From an uncultured Solobacterium sp. (GTDB taxonomy: Bacteria; Bacillota_I; Bacilli_A; Erysipelotrichales; Erysipelotrichaceae), in contig URCJ01000001.1 in NCBI GenBank assembly GCA_900546285.1, forward strand, positions 40,590 to 104,589: a stretch of DNA of 64,000 nt, written 5' to 3'. This document shows positions 51,975 to 63,546 of this stretch, in pieces (the stretch's first letter is position 1; every line of letters starts with the position of its first letter). Both the position numbers and the translations under genes were made by a program. A model generated the notes under the pieces. That model did no database searches, had not been told where the DNA came from, and was given only the letters and a program-made list of their open reading frames with translations.

Positions 51975-52814
51975 ATGGCAGGAAATAAAGCAGCTATTAA
52001 ATCTAGAATTAAGTCAATTAATTCTACTAAGAAGATCACTGGTGCCATGGAACTTATTTCTAATGTCAAATTGACAAAGAATCGTTCTTTGATGCTTAAG
52101 AATAGAGCCTATGCAGGTGCTTTGGAAGATATGGTTGCGAATATGCTTAGTGGTGAGATGATTAGTGAAAATGATTATCTAACTATTAAGGATGCCAAAG
52201 AAAAATTATATTTTGTGTTTACAAGTGATATGGGCTTGTGTGGTGGTTACAACATCAACATTGAAAAGCTTATTAAAGAGACTGTTTCTAAAGATGACTA
52301 TATTATCTTTATTGGAAACAAGAACTATGCTTCTATTAAAAAACTTGGCTATAACATCATTAATGAGATGACAAGCTCAGATACTGCCGATTATATGCTT
52401 ATTAAAGAATATGCAGATAAGGCATTAGAGATGTATCGCTTGAACAAGATTAATTCAATTAATGTTATCTACACTTGTTTTGTCAACAACATCAACTTTA
52501 AGACTACTGTGTTCTCAGTGTTGCCGGGTGAAAAGAAGGATGATGAAAAAAGAGAATATAAGCAGATTGAATTTGAACCAAGTGCGGATGAAATCCTTAA
52601 GGATTTAATTCCGATGATGGTTGAGAGTCAAATCTATTCAAAGTATCTTGAGTCTAAGACAAGTGAACATGGTAATCGTCGTTTTGCGATGGAGAATGCA
52701 ACTGATAACGCTAATGAGCTTACAGATAACTTATTGTTAGCTTATAACCAGGCAAGACAGGCCGCAATTACTCAGGAGATTACTGAGATTGTTTCTGGCG
52801 CTGATGCCCTATAG
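51975..52814 (+). CDS. atpG: F0F1 ATP synthase subunit gamma
   Basis: 279 aa between alpha and beta. Confidence 0.9.
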   Translation: MAGNKAAIKSRIKSINSTKKITGAMELISNVKLTKNRSLMLKNRAYAGALEDMVANMLSGEMISENDYLTIKDAKEKLYFVFTSDMGLCGGYNINIEKLIKETVSKDDYIIFIGNKNYASIKKLGYNIINEMTSSDTADYMLIKEYADKALEMYRLNKINSINVIYTCFVNNINFKTTVFSVLPGEKKDDEKREYKQIEFEPSADEILKDLIPMMVESQIYSKYLESKTSEHGNRRFAMENATDNANELTDNLLLAYNQARQAAITQEITEIVSGADAL

Positions 52815-52823
52815 GAGAAATAA

Positions 52824-54593
<1,770 letters not shown>

Positions 54594-54606
<13 letters not shown>

Positions 54607-54621
54607 GATGCAATTTTTTTT
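54594..54621 (+). terminator. Terminator of the atp operon
   Basis: TTGCATC-ttag-GATGCAA spanning the atpC stop, followed by T9. Confidence 0.55.
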
Positions 54622-54696
54622 ATAATTTGCTTGATTTTCATAATTTAAAAGGAATACTTGCTAAATTTTAAAATCGATGTCTTTATAATACAAAAT

Positions 54697-54774
54697 AAGT
54701 TTTTAAAAACCTAAAAATATATTGACATTAAGTTTTTAAAAACCTATACTGTAATTGTAAGTTTTAAAAAACTT
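54697..54774 (+). promoter_or_regulatory. Promoter (TTGACA-17-TATACT) overlapped by three near-palindromic direct repeats AAGTTTTTAAAAACCT, candidate operator array
   Basis: Repeat copies at 54697-54712, 54730-54745 and 54759-54774. The -35 is at 54722-54727 and the -10 at 54745-54750. Copy 2 fills the spacer and copy 3 covers the start region. Confidence 0.55.
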
Positions 54775-54791
54775 AAAAAGGAGACATAAAT

Positions 54792-56483
54792 ATGCTTAAC
54801 TCTAATTTTCAATACAATATGAATCAGTTGATGAAGGAATCGGAACAGCCATATATTAGATATGATTGTGATAAAAGTTCAATGGTACTATGTTGCTTTT
54901 TACTTTGGGCTAAAAAGCAAAATGATTCATCTAATAACGAATTAATAATGGAAATCATCAAAAATTTAAATTTAAAAAAAGAATTTGATTTAGCGAAATT
55001 TGAGTCACTATACGAATATAGTGTTGAAGATTGCATTGTGACAATTAAAGAAATAATTAATTTAAATAATAACGATTATGAAGACGCAGTATTTTCTGGT
55101 TCTGCTTCGTTAAATGAATTAGTGATTGATCTGTTGAATTTAAAGTCGAATGAATCGTTTTGTGATTTTGGTAGCGGAGATGGCAGATTTTTATCACTTG
55201 TTGCAACTGATGCTAATAATAAAAAAATCAATTGTACTTATACAGGATATGAAGTATCAATCAAGCAAGTCTTAATATCCAAATGTTTGATGAAAGTACT
55301 AGGAGTTGAAGCAGAAATCATCAATCGCGATTATGCAAGAGAGAAAATTGAGAATCAATTTGATAAAGCATATCTATTCCCACCTTTTGGTTTGCGTTAT
55401 TCTATTGCTGAATGGGAGTCTTTAAAAGGAGAGTTTGGCAGACTTTTTACATCTAGAAGTGAAACTGAACTGTTATATTTATTAAAAGTATTTAAAAATA
55501 TTAAGGAAAATGGAAAACTCATTGTTGTTCTTCCACAAGGAGTTGGATTTAGAAGCAGTGGTGTAGCGGTTCGAGAATATCTATTAGAGAACAATTTTGT
55601 AGAAGGAATTATATCGTTGCCAGCAAAGGTATTGACTAGAATATCAATACCTGTTGATTTATGGATTTTGACTAAAGAAACACAAAAAGAAAAAGGTGTT
55701 AAGATGTTAGATGCTACAAATATGATTGTTGAGTCTAAGTCTAAATTCAATGTCGAATTGGATACTAAAGGAATTTTAGAAGCATATTATAAAAACGCAA
55801 GACATGTATTTTTAAAAGATATAAAGGAGAACGAATATTCTTTATCAATTGGAATATATGAAACTTCTAAATTAATGAGCAAAATTTCTAATCCAGTACG
55901 AATCGGTGATGTTTGCAGTATCGAAAAGGGTTCGCAATATACAATATCTAAATTCAAGGATCAAATTTCAAGCACACCTACAGAGTATCAACTATTAGCT
56001 TCCATAAATATTCAAGATGGTATTGTTGAGTATGATTCGTTGACGTATATAAAGCCAGATCAAAAATTATTGAAATTTAAATTAGAAGAAGGAGATATTG
56101 TTATTACAACAAAATCAACTGTTGTTAAGACGTTTGTTGCAAATGATTTACCAGACAGAAACATTATTGTTACTGGTGGAATGATAATATTAAGACCTAA
56201 TACAATAAAAGTAAATCCAACTTATATAAAAATGTTTTTAGATTCTTCGATTGGTAAAAATGAATTTAAATCAATAATTAAGGGAACAACGATAGGTTTT
56301 ATTCCATTCAATGATTTTAAAGAGAAAATGATTATTTCTTGCCCTTCTTTGGACAAACAAAATAAGCTTGCGGAGCAATATAACAATACATTGTGGACTA
56401 TTAATACTTTAACCAAACAACTGGAAGATTCGAAAGCTAAGCTAGGAAACATTTTTGAGGAATCGTTGAGTGAGGATGATTGA
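54792..56483 (+). CDS. HsdM-like N6-adenine methyltransferase fused to a single Type I HsdS-type target recognition domain; motif IV reads FPPF
   Basis: Good RBS AAAAGGAG. SAM motif I DFGSGDGRFL. The motif IV position reads YLFPPFG, whereas the bona fide hsdM downstream has LANPPFN. The C-terminal 200 aa (VRIGDVCSIEKGSQ...TGGMIILRP...PSLDKQNKLAEQ) matches the HsdS TRD plus conserved helix pattern. Confidence 0.7.
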   Translation: MLNSNFQYNMNQLMKESEQPYIRYDCDKSSMVLCCFLLWAKKQNDSSNNELIMEIIKNLNLKKEFDLAKFESLYEYSVEDCIVTIKEIINLNNNDYEDAVFSGSASLNELVIDLLNLKSNESFCDFGSGDGRFLSLVATDANNKKINCTYTGYEVSIKQVLISKCLMKVLGVEAEIINRDYAREKIENQFDKAYLFPPFGLRYSIAEWESLKGEFGRLFTSRSETELLYLLKVFKNIKENGKLIVVLPQGVGFRSSGVAVREYLLENNFVEGIISLPAKVLTRISIPVDLWILTKETQKEKGVKMLDATNMIVESKSKFNVELDTKGILEAYYKNARHVFLKDIKENEYSLSIGIYETSKLMSKISNPVRIGDVCSIEKGSQYTISKFKDQISSTPTEYQLLASINIQDGIVEYDSLTYIKPDQKLLKFKLEEGDIVITTKSTVVKTFVANDLPDRNIIVTGGMIILRPNTIKVNPTYIKMFLDSSIGKNEFKSIIKGTTIGFIPFNDFKEKMIISCPSLDKQNKLAEQYNNTLWTINTLTKQLEDSKAKLGNIFEESLSEDD

Positions 56484-57006
56484 TATGGGATACACGTATA
56501 AAGATAAGTCTTGTATTTTGCAAAGAATAATTGATAAAGTAACAAAAGAAATATTCAATGCATCAAATGATTTAGAAATAGATGATATTATGGCCAAATA
56601 CGGCATAATGTTAGAAGAATCTATAGTGCCCATTAATAAAAGAACTTCAATGATTTTGGTGCTCGGAGCTTTACAAGGGAAGAAGTCAGGATATCAATTG
56701 ATAGCAAAAAAGCTATGTATTTCTGAGCAAAACATTCAATTTATTGATGACTACTCAAAGATGGACACTTTTAATGCAGAACAATTAAGATATTCAGATA
56801 AGTATTCAGATATTATTATTGGAGCGACTCCGCATAGCATGAAAAACAAGGGTGATTTTAGCAGTGTTATTACTATGATTGAAAATAATCCTAAAGAGTA
56901 TCCAAAACTATTAAAAGCGGTTGCAAACAATTCACTAAAAATAACCAATAGTAATTTTAAAGAATTGTTAAAACAAACCAGATACTATCAAGAGGTGATT
57001 GTGTAG
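56470..57006 (+). CDS. Hypothetical 178-aa protein, translationally coupled to the MTase-TRD fusion; alpha/beta (Rossmann-like) pattern; no family recognised
   Basis: Overlaps the upstream stop by 14 nt. It has alternating strand/helix segments (SMILVLGALQGKKSGYQLIAKKL...DIIIGATPHSMKNKGD) and no P-loop or nuclease motif that I can see. Confidence 0.45.
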   Translation: MRMIDMGYTYKDKSCILQRIIDKVTKEIFNASNDLEIDDIMAKYGIMLEESIVPINKRTSMILVLGALQGKKSGYQLIAKKLCISEQNIQFIDDYSKMDTFNAEQLRYSDKYSDIIIGATPHSMKNKGDFSSVITMIENNPKEYPKLLKAVANNSLKITNSNFKELLKQTRYYQEVIV

Positions 57007-57079
57007 GATATAATTTAAAAGATTTATGACTATTTTGTCGATATAATCAATAATGAAGTTAAAAGAAAGGATAATTAAT

Positions 57080-58588
57080 ATGCCAGAAAAAACAAATGCA
57101 AATATAGGATTTGAAAAAGAGTTATGGGATGCTGCTTGTGTTCTCTGGGGACATATACCAGCTGCAGAATATCGTAAAGTGTTAGTTGGTTTAATATTTT
57201 TAAGATATATCTCTAGTGCTTTTGAAAAAAGATACAACGAGCTATTGAATGAAGGTGAAGGTTTCGAAGATGACAGAGATGCTTACTCGGAGAAAAATGT
57301 TTTCTTTGTTCCAAAGGATGCTAGATGGGAAACAATTGCAAAAGCTGCTCATACACCTGAAATTGGCGTAGTGTTGGATAATGCAATGCGTGAGATAGAA
57401 AAAGAAAATCCAACATTAAAAAACGTATTACCTAAGAATTATGCTAGTCCAGATTTAGATAAAACTGTATTAGGCCAAGTTGTTGATATTTTTACCAATA
57501 AAATCAAGATGGAAAGCAATGGATCAGATGAGGATTTATTAGGAAGAACATATGAATATTGTATTGCACAATTTGCTTCAAAAGAAGGGAAGGATGGCGG
57601 AGAATTCTATACGCCTGCAAGTATTGTTAGGACCCTTGTTGAGATATTAAAACCATTTGAAAATTGTCGTGTTTATGATCCTGCTTGTGGTTCTGGAGGC
57701 ATGTTTGTTCAAAGTGCTAAATTTATAGAAGCTCACAACGGGAAAAGAGGGGCTATTTCTGTTTATGGACAAGAAGCAAACTCCGACACTTGGAAAATGG
57801 CGAAAATGAATATGGCAATTAGAGGAATCGATGCTGATTTTGGTCCATATCATGCAGATACCTTTACTAAGGACTTACACCCAACATTAAAAGCGGACTT
57901 TGTATTAGCTAATCCACCTTTTAATTATCATCCTTGGAACCAAGAAAAATTAATAGAGGATAAGCGTTGGAAATATGGTACACCACCAGCGAATAACGCT
58001 AACTTTGCATGGATACAACATATGATTTATCATTTGGCTCCTAATGGAAAAATTGGTTTGGTTTTAGCAAACGGTGCACTATCATCTCAAACTGGTGGAG
58101 AAGGAGAAATCCGAAAGAAAATTATTGAAGATGACTTGATTGAAGGAATTATTTCGATGCCAACTCAATTGTTCTATAGTGTAACTATACCTGTTACTCT
58201 TTGGTTTATTTCAAAGAATAAAAAACAAAAAGAAAAAACTGTTTTTATAGATGCTAGAAAAATGGGACATATGGTTGATAGAACGCATAGAGATTTGTCA
58301 GATGATGATATCAAACTATTGGGAGATACATTTGTGGCTTTCCAAGAAGGTACTTTGGAAGATCAAAAGGGATTTTGTTCAGTAAAAACAATAGAAGATA
58401 TTGCTAAACAAGATTATATTCTTACTCCAGGCAGATATGTTGGGATTGAAGATACTAACGAAGATGATGAACCGTTCGATGAAAAAATGACTAGATTAAC
58501 ATCCGAATTATCAGAAATGTTCGCTAAATCACACGAATTAGAAGATGAAATTCGCAAGAAGCTGGGGGCGATAGGGTATGAAATATAA
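57080..58588 (+). CDS. hsdM: Type I restriction-modification methyltransferase subunit
   Basis: Motif I DPACGSGGMF and motif IV LANPPFN. Start chosen at MPEKTN behind the RBS AAAGAAAGGA; the track ORF starts 27 nt earlier. Confidence 0.9.
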   Translation: MPEKTNANIGFEKELWDAACVLWGHIPAAEYRKVLVGLIFLRYISSAFEKRYNELLNEGEGFEDDRDAYSEKNVFFVPKDARWETIAKAAHTPEIGVVLDNAMREIEKENPTLKNVLPKNYASPDLDKTVLGQVVDIFTNKIKMESNGSDEDLLGRTYEYCIAQFASKEGKDGGEFYTPASIVRTLVEILKPFENCRVYDPACGSGGMFVQSAKFIEAHNGKRGAISVYGQEANSDTWKMAKMNMAIRGIDADFGPYHADTFTKDLHPTLKADFVLANPPFNYHPWNQEKLIEDKRWKYGTPPANNANFAWIQHMIYHLAPNGKIGLVLANGALSSQTGGEGEIRKKIIEDDLIEGIISMPTQLFYSVTIPVTLWFISKNKKQKEKTVFIDARKMGHMVDRTHRDLSDDDIKLLGDTFVAFQEGTLEDQKGFCSVKTIEDIAKQDYILTPGRYVGIEDTNEDDEPFDEKMTRLTSELSEMFAKSHELEDEIRKKLGAIGYEI

Positions 58589-59753
58589 AATGGAAGATGT
58601 TTTAGAAGCCTTGATTGATTATCGTGGTAAGACTCCTAGGAAATCAGAAACGGGTATTCCTACATTGAGTGCAAAATCCGTAAAGGACGGATATATTGAT
58701 TATTCCAGTTGCTATTATATTTCACCAGAAGAATATCAACGCTTTATGGTTAGAGGATTTCCAAAGGTCGGCGATGTTTTGTTAACTACTGAAGCACCAA
58801 TGGGAAATGTTGCACGACTGGATAGAGAAGATATTGGAATTGCACAAAGGTTATTAACTTTGAGAGGGAAAAAAGATGTTTGCGATACAGACTATCTTCG
58901 GTATTGGCTAAAGTCTCCTTATGGTAAGGCGGCGTTAAGTTCCAGAGAAACAGGGACAACAGTAACTGGAATCAAACAGGCAGAATTCAGAAAAATTGTA
59001 ATTGATTTGCCGGACATTGAAACACAGAAAAAGGCGGTTTCCATCTTATTAAGCTTAGAAAGAAAACTTGAGGTAAATAATGAGATAAACAATAATTTAC
59101 TTGAACAAGTGCTTGCCATATACCGTCATCGTTTTGTAGATACTACAAACGAATTGAGACAAATTTATCGTGCTGATGAATATTTTGATATTTCCATTGG
59201 TAAAACTCCTCCGAGAAAAGAACAACAATGGTTTAGCACTAATCCAAAAGATGTTACTTGGGTATCTATTTCCGATATGGGTACTTGTGGTTTATACATT
59301 AGCGAGAGTTCCGAACAACTTACAAGAGAAGCCGTTGACCGTCATAATGTCAAAATCGTACCTGACAATACCGTTTTGCTTAGTTTCAAATTGACAGTTG
59401 GCAGAATTGCAATAACGAACGGCGAAATGACTACCAACGAAGCCATTGCTCATTTCAAAACCGACAAAAAAGAAATCAATGAGTACTTATATTGCTATCT
59501 GAAATGCTTTAATTATCAGACTATGGGAAGCACTTCATCAATCGCAACTGCTGTGAACTCAAAAATCATTAAAGGTATGTCTTTCATAGTACCTACCGAT
59601 GAAGAAATAACTGAATTTCACAGTTTAGCAGCTCCTATGTTTGCAAAAATCAAGTCAAATCAAGCTGAAATAAGCAATTTGACAGCACTTCGTGATACTC
59701 TTTTACCCAAATTGATGTCCGGCGAGCTTGATATCTCCGACACCGAACTCTAA
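58578..59753 (+). CDS. hsdS: Type I restriction-modification specificity subunit (two TRDs)
   Basis: 391 aa with two TRDs, each followed by the conserved helical spacer (LPDIETQKKAVSILLSLERKLE; TEFHSLAAPMFAKIK). Overlaps hsdM by 11 nt. Confidence 0.85.
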   Translation: MKYKMEDVLEALIDYRGKTPRKSETGIPTLSAKSVKDGYIDYSSCYYISPEEYQRFMVRGFPKVGDVLLTTEAPMGNVARLDREDIGIAQRLLTLRGKKDVCDTDYLRYWLKSPYGKAALSSRETGTTVTGIKQAEFRKIVIDLPDIETQKKAVSILLSLERKLEVNNEINNNLLEQVLAIYRHRFVDTTNELRQIYRADEYFDISIGKTPPRKEQQWFSTNPKDVTWVSISDMGTCGLYISESSEQLTREAVDRHNVKIVPDNTVLLSFKLTVGRIAITNGEMTTNEAIAHFKTDKKEINEYLYCYLKCFNYQTMGSTSSIATAVNSKIIKGMSFIVPTDEEITEFHSLAAPMFAKIKSNQAEISNLTALRDTLLPKLMSGELDISDTEL

Positions 59754-59846: not shown

Positions 59847-62800
59847 ATGGCAACTTATTACACTGAGTCAGATTATGAAAAATCAATAATCGAGTTATTC
59901 CGAGGTATGGGATATCAGTATTTTTATGGCCCAGATATTGAACGAGACTACAATTGTCCTTTATTTGAGGAAGAATTAGAGTCTGCTTTATATCGATTAA
60001 ATCCTAAAATGCCAAATGATGCTATTCAAGATGCTTTATATAAGTTAAAGAATTTTGAAAATGCTAGCTTAGTTCAAAAAAATGAAGTATTCATGGATTA
60101 TGTTCAAAATGGAATCGAAGTTCATTACTTTAAAAAGAACGAAGAACGTTCTGGAATAGTGTATTTAATAGATTATAAGAATATAAATAAAAACTCCTTT
60201 ATTGTAGCGAATCAATGGACCTATATTGAAAACAGCAATAAGAGGCCTGATGTGATTTTGTTTGTTAATGGGTTACCTTTGGTCTTAATTGAATTAAAAT
60301 CTCCTTCTAGAGAAGAGACAGATGCTTCGGAAGGGTATACACAAATAAGAAATTATCTACAAGAAATACCTTCGATGTTTATTTATAATTGCATTTGTGT
60401 TATAAGCGATCAACTTACATCTAAGGCTGGAACTATAACTTCAAGTGAAGATCGTTTCATGGAGTGGAAAACAAAAGATGGCAATTATGAAAATACGCAA
60501 TATGCGCAATTTGATACTTTCTTTGAAGGAATGTTTGAAAAATCTCGATTGTTGGATATTATAAAAAACTTCATTTGTTTTTCAAATGAAGGATTAGAAA
60601 AATACAAAATACTTGCTGGATATCATCAATATTTTGCGGTTAAAAAAGCAATTGAATCAACAAAAAAGGCTACAGTTACAGACGGTAAAGGTGGTGTTTT
60701 TTGGCATACTCAAGGTAGTGGAAAATCTTTATCTATGGTATTCTACGCTCATTTGCTACAAGAAGAATTAGAAAGTCCAACGATAGTTGTGATTACGGAC
60801 AGAAATGATTTGGATGACCAACTTTTTGGACAATTTTCAAAATGTCGAGATTTTTTAAGACAAACACCAATTCAAGCTACTTGTAGAAAATTAGGCCCTA
60901 ATTCTACCACTAACGATATAGGCTTGATAGACTGGCTAAATGACAGGCAAGCAAATGGCATCATTTTTACTACGATGCAAAAATTCGAAGAAGCAGAAGA
61001 ATCCTTATCTGAACGTAGAAATATCATAGTTATGGCTGATGAAGCGCATCGAGGACAATATGGACTTAAAGAAGTGGTTGACCCAACTACCGGAAAAATA
61101 AAAGTTGGAACAGCTAGAATTATACGTAACTCTTTGCCTAATGCAACATATATTGGATTTACCGGAACTCCTATTTCTTTAAAAGATAGAAGTACTCAAG
61201 AGGTGTTTGGAAATTATATCGATATTTATGATATGACTCAAGCGGTAGAAGATGGTGCAACTCGACCAGTTTACTATGAAAGCCGTGTTATTAAATTGAA
61301 ACTTGATGAAGAGACATTGAAACTAATTGATTCCGAATATGATACTATGGCTAATAATGCTGATCCTGAAGTAATTGCTAAAAGTAAGAAAACATTGGGA
61401 AAAATGGAAGCTATCCTGGGCAATGATAAAACAATTGAATCTTTAGTTAATGACATTTTGGATCATTACGAAAATTATAGAGAAAATATACTAACTGGAA
61501 AAGCAATGGTTGTGGCTTATTCTAGACCCATTGCATTAAAAATATATAATCGTATCTTGGAACTAAGACCTAATTGGAAAGATAAAGTTGCTGTTGTAAT
61601 GACAGAAAGCAACAAAGATCCTGAAGAATGGCGTAGTATTATTGGCAATAAACGGCATAGAAATGAATTAGCAAAATCTTTTAAAGATAATAATAGTCCA
61701 CTAAAAATCGCGATTGTTGTTGATATGTGGTTGACTGGTTTTAATGTACCTTCTTTAGCCACCATGTATGTATATAAACCAATGCAGGGGTACAATTTGA
61801 TGCAGGCCATTGCTCGCGTAAATAGAGTATTTGAGAATAAAGAAGGTGGTTTGGTTGTTGATTATGTAGGAATTGCTGGCGCTTTAAAACAAGCGATGAA
61901 TGATTATACAAAAAGAGATAAGAAAAACTATGGAGATACAGATGTATCTAAAGTGGCTTATCCAAAATTTGTGGAAAAATTATCAATTTGTAGAGATTTA
62001 TTCCATGGATATGATTATTCAAAGTTCATATCAGGAACTGACTTGGAAAGATCAAAGACCATTAGTGGTGCTGTTAATTTTATTGTTGGGGTTGGCAAAG
62101 AATCGGAGCGAGAATCTTTTATTAAAGAGGGATTAATGCTTAGACAATCACTATCATTGTGTTCTTCTTTAGTGGAAGAAGCTTTACGTGTTGAAGCTGC
62201 TTTCTTTGAATCTGTTAGAGTTTTGGTAATGAGACTTGTTGATAAAGGTGAAGGAAAAAGAATTTCTTTGCCAGAGATGAATGAGCGTATAAATGAGTTA
62301 TTAAAGACCAGTATCAAGAGTGATGGAGTAATCAATTTATTTTCAGATGCATCTGAAGACTTTTCATTATTCGATCCAAAGTTTTTAGCTGAAATTTCAA
62401 AAATGAAAGAAAAGAACTTAGCGGTTGAATTATTAAAAAAATTAATTGCTGATCAAGTTCAAGTATATAAGCATACAAACGTTGTTAAGGCTGAAAAATT
62501 CAGTGAAATAATAAAAAGAGTTATGAATTCATATTTAAACGGAATGCTAACTAACGAACAAGTTATAGAAGAATTGCTTAATTTGGCAAAACAGATTAAA
62601 TCATCACAAGAAGAAGGTGATGAGCTAGGTTTAACGGCAGATGAATTAGCTTTTTATGACGCGTTAACAAAACCGAGAGCGATAAAAGATTTTTATGAAA
62701 ATGAAGAATTGATAGCTATTACTAAAGAATTGGCTAATTCACTACGCAAGAATAGAACAATTGATTGGCAAAAAAGAGAGTCAGCAAGAGCTCATATGAG

Positions 62801-63035
62801 AATGATGATAAAAAGGCTTTTGAAAAAACATCATTATCCACCAGAAGGCATGGAAGATGCGGTACAAACTGTAATGATTCAATGTGAACTTTGGACAGAT
62901 AATATGCCTGAAGAAGTTTTAAAAACAAATGAAGATCCTGATTATTTCTGCTATGATTTTAGTGCACCTTCATTTGCGATAGCTGATAGTGGTATCAAAT
63001 ATGATACTGACGATAAGAAAGATAAAGATAACTAA
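59847..63035 (+). CDS. hsdR: Type I restriction enzyme R subunit (helicase-nuclease)
   Basis: 1062 aa with an N-terminal PD-(D/E)xK region (ILFVNGLPLVLIELK), helicase motifs (HTQGSGKS, MADEAHRGQ, TGTPI) and a C-terminal helical domain. Confidence 0.9.
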   Translation: MATYYTESDYEKSIIELFRGMGYQYFYGPDIERDYNCPLFEEELESALYRLNPKMPNDAIQDALYKLKNFENASLVQKNEVFMDYVQNGIEVHYFKKNEERSGIVYLIDYKNINKNSFIVANQWTYIENSNKRPDVILFVNGLPLVLIELKSPSREETDASEGYTQIRNYLQEIPSMFIYNCICVISDQLTSKAGTITSSEDRFMEWKTKDGNYENTQYAQFDTFFEGMFEKSRLLDIIKNFICFSNEGLEKYKILAGYHQYFAVKKAIESTKKATVTDGKGGVFWHTQGSGKSLSMVFYAHLLQEELESPTIVVITDRNDLDDQLFGQFSKCRDFLRQTPIQATCRKLGPNSTTNDIGLIDWLNDRQANGIIFTTMQKFEEAEESLSERRNIIVMADEAHRGQYGLKEVVDPTTGKIKVGTARIIRNSLPNATYIGFTGTPISLKDRSTQEVFGNYIDIYDMTQAVEDGATRPVYYESRVIKLKLDEETLKLIDSEYDTMANNADPEVIAKSKKTLGKMEAILGNDKTIESLVNDILDHYENYRENILTGKAMVVAYSRPIALKIYNRILELRPNWKDKVAVVMTESNKDPEEWRSIIGNKRHRNELAKSFKDNNSPLKIAIVVDMWLTGFNVPSLATMYVYKPMQGYNLMQAIARVNRVFENKEGGLVVDYVGIAGALKQAMNDYTKRDKKNYGDTDVSKVAYPKFVEKLSICRDLFHGYDYSKFISGTDLERSKTISGAVNFIVGVGKESERESFIKEGLMLRQSLSLCSSLVEEALRVEAAFFESVRVLVMRLVDKGEGKRISLPEMNERINELLKTSIKSDGVINLFSDASEDFSLFDPKFLAEISKMKEKNLAVELLKKLIADQVQVYKHTNVVKAEKFSEIIKRVMNSYLNGMLTNEQVIEELLNLAKQIKSSQEEGDELGLTADELAFYDALTKPRAIKDFYENEELIAITKELANSLRKNRTIDWQKRESARAHMRMMIKRLLKKHHYPPEGMEDAVQTVMIQCELWTDNMPEEVLKTNEDPDYFCYDFSAPSFAIADSGIKYDTDDKKDKDN

Positions 63036-63177: not shown

Positions 63178-63546
63178 TTGGAGGTCAAAATGCCTATAAA
63201 TACTAAAACAAATTATGGAGATATCAAAATATCTGATGAGGCTATCGCATCTTTAGCTGGTAGTACTGTATGTGAATGCTATGGCATCGTTGGAGTTGTC
63301 TCAAAATCTTATGTAAAAGATAGTTACAATGCTCTTTTAAAGAAAGAAAGCTATTCAAAGGGCGTTCTTCTTTCTAAGAAAGGCAATGATTTAAAAATTG
63401 ACATTTATGTTGTTGTTTCAGCAGGTGTGAAGATTTCAGAAGTTATTATGGAAGCACAAAAGCGTGTTAAGTATACTGTTGAAAAATCTATTAATATGGA
63501 TGTTAAAGAAGTAAATATTCATGTTGAAAGGGTTAAAGGAAACTAA
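63178..63546 (+). CDS. Asp23/Gls24-family (alkaline shock) protein
   Basis: 122 aa; DIKISDEAIASLAGSTVCECYGIVGVVS. Confidence 0.8.
   Translation: MEVKMPINTKTNYGDIKISDEAIASLAGSTVCECYGIVGVVSKSYVKDSYNALLKKESYSKGVLLSKKGNDLKIDIYVVVSAGVKISEVIMEAQKRVKYTVEKSINMDVKEVNIHVERVKGN

Follow-up and report, generated by a model that had tools for sequence, protein, structure and literature searches.

A candidate regulatory front-end of Type I restriction-modification operons, built from a methylase-like protein fused to one target recognition domain

To our knowledge, only two small helix-turn-helix (HTH) regulators, HsdC and RptR, have been tied to restriction-modification (RM) systems of Type I. How these systems are controlled at the level of transcription is poorly understood, as a review acknowledges (PMC12707154). 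Here, we go through a stretch of DNA of 64,000 nucleotides from an uncultured Solobacterium sp. (contig URCJ01000001.1, positions 40,590 to 104,589; called the window below), in which a Type I operon is headed by two further genes, A and B, and by repeated near-palindromes over their promoter. A encodes a methylase-like domain fused to a single target recognition domain (TRD) of the HsdS type, and B encodes a protein of no known family. What can such a pair do at the head of an RM operon? We see about an even chance that A, B and the palindromic operators together make up an autoregulated control cassette for the Type I operon as a whole, with a dimer of the dead methylase as the reader of the operators.

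Repressors that are encoded by the first gene of a Type I operon and act on repeated operators do exist, namely RptR (PMC12255303) and HsdC (PMC5282649), both of which are small HTH proteins. RptR represses the promoter of Type I RM and DarTG2 islands in Gammaproteobacteria via repeated short palindromes, and it resembles A-B in being encoded by the first gene of its operon, in the conservation of regulator and site across taxa, and in a strong link to Type I RM with an occasional place before other defence genes (PMC12255303). However, RptR is an HTH protein of 79 aa which binds TAGCTA, whereas the window has a fusion protein of 563 aa and a flavodoxin-like protein of 173 aa with the site AAGTTT-N4-AAACTT, and no sequence relationship was found between RptR and A-B. 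The C proteins of Type II RM systems and HsdC of Mollicutes hsd operons (PMC5282649) are likewise autogenous head-of-operon regulators with repeats in their own promoters, but they are small proteins of the Xre-type HTH class, and neither A nor B has an HTH domain. A-B has the place of an RM controller, at the 5′ end of an RM operon and with repeated operators over its own promoter, but includes no small HTH protein.

A methylase fold without catalysis is represented by METTL14, a non-catalytic methyltransferase paralogue of a different family (MT-A70), in which the fold is kept for substrate binding. Among RM enzymes, the methylase polypeptides of M.SsoII, M.EcoRII and M.MspI double as transcriptional regulators of their systems (PMC12707154; PMC3978073), a double use similar to that proposed here for A. 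These proteins have kept their catalytic activity and regulate through an extra HTH region at the N-terminus, whereas A has its least conserved part there, lacks the catalytic residue and would read DNA with the TRD itself. Ronin, which consists of HsdM, HsdS and RonA, shares with A-B the derivation from a Type I methylase core, a small gene of unknown family and a location beside restriction systems, and methyl transfer is dispensable for it (bioRxiv 10.1101/2023.04.06.535777). Nevertheless, Ronin keeps HsdM (with NPPF) and HsdS as separate proteins, has a membrane toxin of 61 aa as the partner and usually lacks hsdR, in contrast to the cassette, which fuses the M and S parts, has a degenerate motif IV and a soluble alpha/beta partner of 173 aa, and comes with hsdR. 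In Type I systems with two methylases (M1 with NPPF and M2 with NPPY; PMC5100572), too, another methylase-like gene stands upstream of the hsdM/hsdS pair within one operon, and M2.PcaI even has an extra fused single TRD of unknown function (PMC5100572). In those systems, however, both subunits are highly similar and active, with N at motif IV, while A is only about 18% identical to its neighbouring HsdM and has neither the HsdM_N domain nor the Asn. Finally, M.TaqI and CamA (PMC8187626) have the same order of a Rossmann methylase domain and a C-terminal DNA-recognition domain in one chain, but they are active orphan or Type II enzymes with NPPY.

Operators over the promoter of A-B

In the window, the genes atpG, atpD and atpC are followed by five co-oriented genes, A, B, hsdM, hsdS and hsdR. 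The front part of this array is composed as follows.

54697-54712, no strand: putative operator O1, AAGTTTTTAAAAACCT, its end 9 nt upstream of the -35 element
54722-54750, + strand: sigma-70-type promoter TTGACA-17-TATACT, by sequence match
54730-54745, no strand: putative operator O2, AAGTTTTTAAAAACCT, filling the promoter spacer and abutting the -10 element
54759-54774, no strand: putative operator O3, AAGTTTTAAAAAACTT, between the -10 element and the ribosome-binding site
54792-56483, + strand: gene A, fusion of a predicted pseudo-methyltransferase and a recognition domain, 563 aa
55164-55184, + strand: motif I of A, DFGSGDG, the family-conserved S-adenosylmethionine (SAM)-binding loop
55377-55388, + strand: motif IV position of A, FPPF (F196-F199) in place of (N/D/S)PP(F/Y)
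55884-56351, + strand: the single HsdS-type TRD of A, the most conserved part of the family
56485-57006, + strand: gene B, 173 aa, helical hairpin and flavodoxin-like alpha/beta domain

The promoter agrees with the consensus at 11 of 12 positions and is the best promoter match of the 9-kb region, and the ribosome-binding site of A is GGAG at 54780-54783. O1, O2 and O3 are three copies of a 16-bp near-palindrome whose consensus is AAGTTT-N4-AAACTT, with the variants TGGTTT, GGTTA and GCGTTT, and the interval 54697-54774 is the sole cluster of GTT-N6-AAC-type sites in the window. It is to be added that an A-tract (AAACTTAAAA) follows each operator, both in the window (54697-54784) and in the related loci, which makes the sites slightly asymmetric; it may be a part of the recognised site or else a bending or UP-like element.

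How general is this arrangement? The comparison covers 78 related loci, obtained by look-ups of individual A and B homologues and by scans of genome and metagenome collections, in which genes were identified by means of A and B profiles and the Hsd proteins of the window. They contain 32 non-redundant full-length A genes; the family counts leave out a distant A-like group (L025-L028 and L074-L078), which is described below. Two or three copies of the palindrome, and never fewer than two, are found at all 30 non-redundant loci, including three that lack B, and a site at the O1 position is present in all 30 as well. The layout recurs too, with O1 about 9 nt upstream of TTGACA, O2 covering the spacer and the -10 element, and often a third copy ahead of the ribosome-binding site. 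In many related loci the right half-site of O2, TAAACT, doubles as the -10 hexamer. Per kb, GTT-N6-AAC occurs 9.2 times in the 200 nt upstream of A and 0.32 times in the remainder of these loci, and the half-site is nearly constant among A proteins that are only 25-35% identical to one another. Furthermore, the operators travel with the cassette rather than with the host, as seen from the different flanks of its copies: that of the window lies between atpC and an Asp23-like gene, and those of Holdemanella have other neighbours. No gene lies upstream of A in the window cassette, nor is there an HTH gene to supply another repressor. Since the cassette moves between genomes and its copy in the window has no other candidate regulator, the protein that reads the operators is, to judge from these sequences, almost certainly encoded in the cassette itself.

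Gene A and the drift of its motif IV

The product of A begins with an N-terminal region that varies (residues 1-105), continues with an N6_Mtase-like domain (106-360) and an HsdS-type TRD (365-520), and ends in a conserved C-terminal helix (521-563). An HsdM-type layout joined to one TRD with its helix had already been read from the letters in the first-pass annotation, and profile searches bear it out. N6_Mtase (PF02384) matches residues 106-359 with an E value of 2.9e-25, the C-terminal 200 residues, a genuine HsdS-type recognition domain with the conserved helix, match HsdS specificity models (PADLOC Specificity_I, E 2e-16), and a profile of the C-terminal half of A matches, helix included, TRD1 and TRD2 of EcoKI (5e-17 and 4e-16) and TRD1 of the HsdS in the window (2e-21). 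A specific likeness to TRD1 of EcoKI, which reads AAC and so would have suited the AAC half-site, was considered and dropped, since the three TRDs are matched about equally, and this comparison makes no statement on specificity. A carries one TRD behind a methylase-like domain and is thus not a stand-alone HsdS with two TRDs. Nor does it look like an ordinary HsdM. HsdM_N (PF12161) has no match in A, whereas the neighbouring HsdM matches it at E 3.6e-24, and A scores 45.2 bits with the HsdM equivalog TIGR00497, below the cut-off of 242.75. The equivalogs of MADS systems in NCBIfam are also far from being reached (mad2, 29.8 versus 720 bits; mad5, 22.4 versus 400 bits). Scans of Pfam and other libraries gave no match to a helix-turn-helix family in A or B, and no sequence match of A to CamA or M.TaqI was detectable.

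The first-pass annotation had drawn attention to FPPF at the position of motif IV, where the downstream hsdM reads ANPPF. The sequence confirms this difference, and the family of A makes it much more than a peculiarity of one gene. Among 1.84 billion representative proteins searched (E<1e-30), the A family comprises at least 283 clusters at 50% identity, nearly all members having 540-600 aa, in bins of Bacilli, Clostridia, Erysipelotrichales, Coriobacteriia and Spirochaetes; the nearest relatives that carry a name, at 63% identity, are proteins of Holdemanella biformis. When 142 representatives are anchored on the last aromatic residue of motif IV, the first residue of the motif is F (56 representatives), N (23), Y (17), D (11), H (8), E (6), Q (4) or another one, and the fourth is often L, I or V. 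A nearer clade has [F/Y]PP[F/L/I]G and a farther one FSN[Y/F]P[F/L/W]G. FPPF is a family trait, not a lesion. Some members keep N or D at the first position (NYPF, DPPF), and these may still be active.

The SAM-binding motifs I-III, on the other hand, are all present in A (DFGSGDG, E154 and D180), and their retention, considered possible at first pass, holds for the 142 representatives, with D125 in 87%, G129 in 89%, G131 in 94%, an acidic residue at 154 in 95% and D or N at 180 in 87%. Compared with the locus that is 92% identical to the window cassette, the ratio of nonsynonymous to synonymous substitution rates (dN/dS) of A is 0.14, being 0.14 in the methylase-like domain and 0.08 in the TRD, and that of B is 0.08, which means purifying selection on both genes. 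The idea that A is a pseudogene was rejected on account of this ratio and of the size of the family. Conservation is highest in the TRD, with a pairwise identity across the family of 0.36, followed by the methylase-like domain (0.28) and the N-terminal region (0.14); with the Holdemanella protein, identity is 84% in the TRD and 60% in the methylase-like domain. A TRD more conserved than the rest of the protein is the reverse of what is seen in ordinary HsdS, and it parallels the near-constant half-site of the operators. Taken together, dN/dS and conservation indicate that the fold and the cofactor pocket are under selection, and that the residue contacting the flipped adenine is not. This residue is the Asn of motif IV in CamA (PMC8187626), and in Type I methylases the change of motif IV to APPA abolishes activity (PMC5100572). 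It is reasonable to infer, as the first-pass annotation had predicted, that methyl transfer has been lost in A.

In current sources, genes of the A type are labelled 'N-6 DNA methylase' or 'type I restriction enzyme M protein'.

Gene B and the company kept by A-B

B begins with an ATG at 56485, 1 nt after the stop codon of A and 7 nt downstream of a GAGGA ribosome-binding site, a spacing which predicts translational coupling of B to A. The first-pass annotation had given B 178 aa and an overlap of 14 nt with A. Such an open reading frame (ORF) does exist from GTG 56470, but all homologues have 172-173 aa and a product of 173 aa is the form on record, so the gene itself starts at ATG 56485 and does not overlap. 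A Rossmann-like alpha/beta pattern, suspected from the letters, reappears in the AlphaFold2 (AF2) model of B (pLDDT 89), which has an N-terminal helical hairpin and a flavodoxin/Rossmann-like alpha/beta domain; an alignment of 14 sequences had given an unusable model (pLDDT 51), and one of 51 sequences was used instead. The alpha/beta domain is basic (isoelectric point (pI) 9.4) and the hairpin acidic (pI 4.7). B has no match in Pfam, NCBIfam or PADLOC, and none in the plasmid and phage collections; 51 members of its family gave only scattered noise against Pfam, and its profile gave only noise against the sequences of the PDB, with no structure of RptR or a C protein among them. Neither a recognisable DNA-binding motif nor an effector-like motif, a transmembrane segment or a specific structural relative was found in B.

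Even so, the pairing of A with this protein of no known family, which the first-pass annotation had noticed in one locus, is general: B lies directly downstream of A in 27 of the 30 non-redundant loci with enough sequence. It is absent from L022, L038 and L065, which keep A and the operators; an apparent absence from L008 was an artefact of the scoring. At L022 the slot of B is taken by an unrelated ORF of 169 aa with the string RCNLFH, possibly a HEPN-like Rx4H (L022:11495-12004), next to A and two operators. This ORF was tried as a divergent B and rejected, because it does not match the B profile; it matches no Pfam family either.

In almost all loci where the contig continues, A-B is followed on the same strand by a Type I system, so that A-B forms its 5′ end. 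The system itself changes from locus to locus. The C-terminus of HsdR is T1RH-like_C in the window, EcoEI_R_C at L035 and EcoR124_C at L008, the order of the genes is M-S-R or R-M-S, and HsdS is unrelated between loci or belongs to a shufflon with an integrase. Such variety of HsdR families, gene orders and HsdS argues against a specific enzymatic partnership and for a promoter or regulator that can be plugged in. A-B is thus a modular front-end, rather than a subunit tailored to a single enzyme. The proposal of the first-pass annotation that A-B is an autonomous non-RM defence module finds no support here, given that A-B is the 5′ end of a co-oriented hsd operon at nearly every locus whose contig reaches far enough and that B shows no effector-like motif. 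Its fallback, an RM-regulating module, fits best, with conserved operators 20-95 nt upstream of the interval 54792-57006 to which it had referred.

Several loci show further genes in or around the operons headed by A-B. An AbiJ_NTD4/Abi_C gene lies between hsdM and hsdS at L010:11308-12213, and a DUF4145 gene of the abortive-infection type follows hsdM at L008:11172-11870. At L001, a GmrSD Type IV enzyme comes directly after hsdR. At L070:9408-12626, A-B with intact operators is followed by a remnant of 104 aa from the C-terminus of hsdR and then by GmrSD, and at L068:9329-11643, where an AIPR gene comes after A-B with intact operators, a complete hsdMSR lies upstream, as do two genes with ASCH domains. 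The Holdemanella loci contain hsdS shufflons with full and half hsdS genes on both strands and a tyrosine recombinase (L001:13787-21680, L002, L003, L006 and L035:9705-12725). At L011:3873-6057 and L012:1-6932, the neighbours are genes for a TraG/T4 coupling protein, a relaxase, ArdC-N/RadC and a topoisomerase; such conjugation genes indicate that the A-B module travels on conjugative elements.

Some loci stand apart. The proteins of the distant A-like group are about 500-545 aa long, score about 180-210 with the profile, and come without B and without operators; they are followed (e.g., L026:9521-21116) by HsdM-like proteins of about 805-820 aa and about 500 aa and then by hsdS and hsdR, and may represent a different Type I architecture with multiple methylases. 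L014 (CAKUXH010000077.1) is a contig of 4.6 kb, 92% identical to the window cassette, in a metagenome-assembled genome labelled 'uncultured Opitutales'; as all other close relatives belong to Bacillota, this placement looks like a binning error. At L045:3518-11298 neither A nor hsdR is whole, each being broken into many short frames, and the locus is either decayed or an error-rich assembly.

In the window, the remaining parts of the cassette and its left edge are these.

54592-54617/54627, + strand: intrinsic terminator of the upstream atp operon, an 11-bp stem and then a T-run, left edge of the inserted cassette
57053-58588, + strand: hsdM with canonical NPPF
58578-59753, + strand: hsdS with two TRDs
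59847-63035, + strand: hsdR of the family with a T1RH-like_C C-terminus

Domain scans uphold the first-pass statement that a complete hsdMSR lies downstream of A-B, hsdM, hsdS and hsdR all being complete; the true start of hsdM is likely to be ATG 57080, which would give 502 aa as in L014. atpC ends at 54606, and an Asp23-like gene follows hsdR at 63178, so that the cassette sits exactly between the atpC terminator and the Asp23-like gene. The G+C content is 0.28-0.31 across A-B (54500-57000) against 0.35-0.40 for the atp genes and 0.38-0.41 in atpD (52500-54000), as expected for an inserted island.

Which protein reads the operators

Half-HsdS proteins dimerise. A single TRD with one conserved helix corresponds to half an HsdS, and a 5 bp-N6-5 bp palindrome would accordingly suit a dimer of A. 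Should A be the reader, it may descend from a half-complex of HsdM and HsdS for which methylation is no longer needed: two copies of A would pair via the C-terminal HsdS-type helix, like half-HsdS subunits, into a pseudo-M2S1, and their two recognition domains would read the two half-sites of AAGTT-N6-AACTT. The whole operon A-B-hsdM-hsdS-hsdR would be driven by one strong promoter. The positions of the sites point to repression by occlusion: protein bound at O1, O2 and O3 would block the -35/-10 region and the transcript start and let the operon repress itself. The retained SAM pocket would probably be a cofactor or allosteric site for DNA binding, and B would be an obligate partner which modulates A or links it to a signal. 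The role of A as the reader, its dimerisation, repression by binding, the loss of catalysis and a single transcript of five genes are all inferred by us. A is favoured as the reader because it holds the only recognisable sequence-specific DNA-reading domain of the cassette, because its TRD is so conserved, and because A and the operators occur together at the three loci without B.

Several points weigh against the idea of a repressor made of A. B could be the DNA binder, as its alpha/beta domain is basic, and no more than three loci lack B. An ordinary dimeric HTH repressor would also fit a 16-bp palindrome whose half-site centres are 11 bp apart. Many of the conserved residues of the TRD are generic scaffold positions of HsdS, which makes its conservation only moderate evidence for a fixed specificity, and reading the half-site as AAC gives the adenines a strand polarity opposite to that of classical Type I sites. 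Moreover, simple repression of a single operon leaves the strong conservation of B unexplained, and it would not delay HsdR relative to HsdM. One elaboration of the control cassette, which we think improbable, would give the repression another purpose. Because the dimer of A copies the DNA-binding core of the enzyme, it would be as vulnerable to DNA mimics as the real enzyme; Ocr or ArdA, brought in by a phage or a conjugative plasmid, might thus strip it off the operators and derepress hsdMSR together with the defence genes embedded in the operon, just at the time when restriction is under inhibition, in an anti-anti-restriction loop with B as co-sensor or modulator.

What if B, alone or as part of a complex with A, is the repressor that binds the operators, and A senses SAM, the state of DNA or inhibitors and signals to B? 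The presence of B in most loci under strong constraint (27 of 30; dN/dS 0.08), its basic alpha/beta domain and the fact that any dimeric DNA-binding protein suits a 16-bp palindrome speak for it, but B has no recognisable DNA-binding motif and an acidic hairpin, the operators remain where B is missing, and it is A that has a bona fide sequence-specific DNA-reading domain; we hold this arrangement to be unlikely. To a similar, small degree one may believe in a decoy or guard like Ronin, in which A mimics M2S1, the target of the DNA mimics of phages and plasmids, the binding of Ocr or ArdA releases or activates B as an abortive-infection effector, and the operators serve autoregulation of the kind known from toxin-antitoxin (TA) pairs. 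There is a precedent, as Ronin is an HsdMS with dispensable methylation that senses anti-restriction proteins and controls a linked small effector (bioRxiv 10.1101/2023.04.06.535777). Translational coupling of A and B behind an autoregulated promoter is also reminiscent of TA pairs, the slot of B at L022 contains an unrelated ORF with a HEPN-like string, and A-B persists beside AIPR or GmrSD where hsdMSR is missing or a remnant (L068, L070). Against such a guard, the three loci without B still have A and operators, a complete hsdR is normally present, unlike in Ronin, and no PADLOC model matches B.

Two further explanations leave A closer to its enzymatic relatives. A might be an active methyltransferase with a non-canonical motif IV and a second specificity, possibly AAGTT-N6-AACTT, whose methylation regulates its own promoter. 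Intact SAM-binding motifs, the members with NYPF or DPPF and the existence of Type I systems with two different methylase subunits (PMC5100572) are in favour of activity, and yet the first residue of motif IV is F or Y in about half of the representatives and otherwise highly variable, with L, I or V often at the fourth, replacement by APPA kills Type I methylases (PMC5100572), the Asn of CamA contacts the flipped adenine (PMC8187626), the score of A stays far under the hsdM equivalog cut-off (45 versus 243 bits), and operators and B accompany A whatever the residue at motif IV, all of which makes this quite improbable. Hardly credible, finally, is a dimer of A as an alternative core of specificity, independent of methylation, through which the neighbouring HsdR would be brought to cut either a fixed sequence or modified DNA. 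One chain of A amounts to half of M2S1, and with an aromatic residue its base pocket might prefer a modified base; however, A has no HsdM_N domain, the same A-B stands beside three unrelated HsdR families and persists where HsdR is only a remnant, and the putative sites of A lie in its own promoter, which would be cut.

The control cassette with A as the reader would add a new kind of regulator to a known type of regulation. Autoregulation of RM operons is already known as a concept; a regulator made of a dead methylase and a TRD, with a partner of unknown family, is what we propose as new. In the literature searched, we found no description of the A-B family or architecture, of an inactive HsdM-TRD fusion or of a pseudo-methylase regulator of Type I systems, and A-B is absent as a system from PADLOC 2.0. 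Whichever of its proteins reads the operators, A-B is a widespread and apparently undescribed two-gene front-end with its own conserved operators, present in many gut bacteria, which is plugged into unrelated families of Type I systems. If A is indeed the reader, it would be the first case in which a methylase/specificity scaffold of RM has been turned into a catalytically dead, sequence-specific repressor, and a prokaryotic pseudoenzyme of DNA methylation with a defined site. Under their current labels, genes of the A type would be miscounted as active methylases in surveys of methylomes and defence systems.

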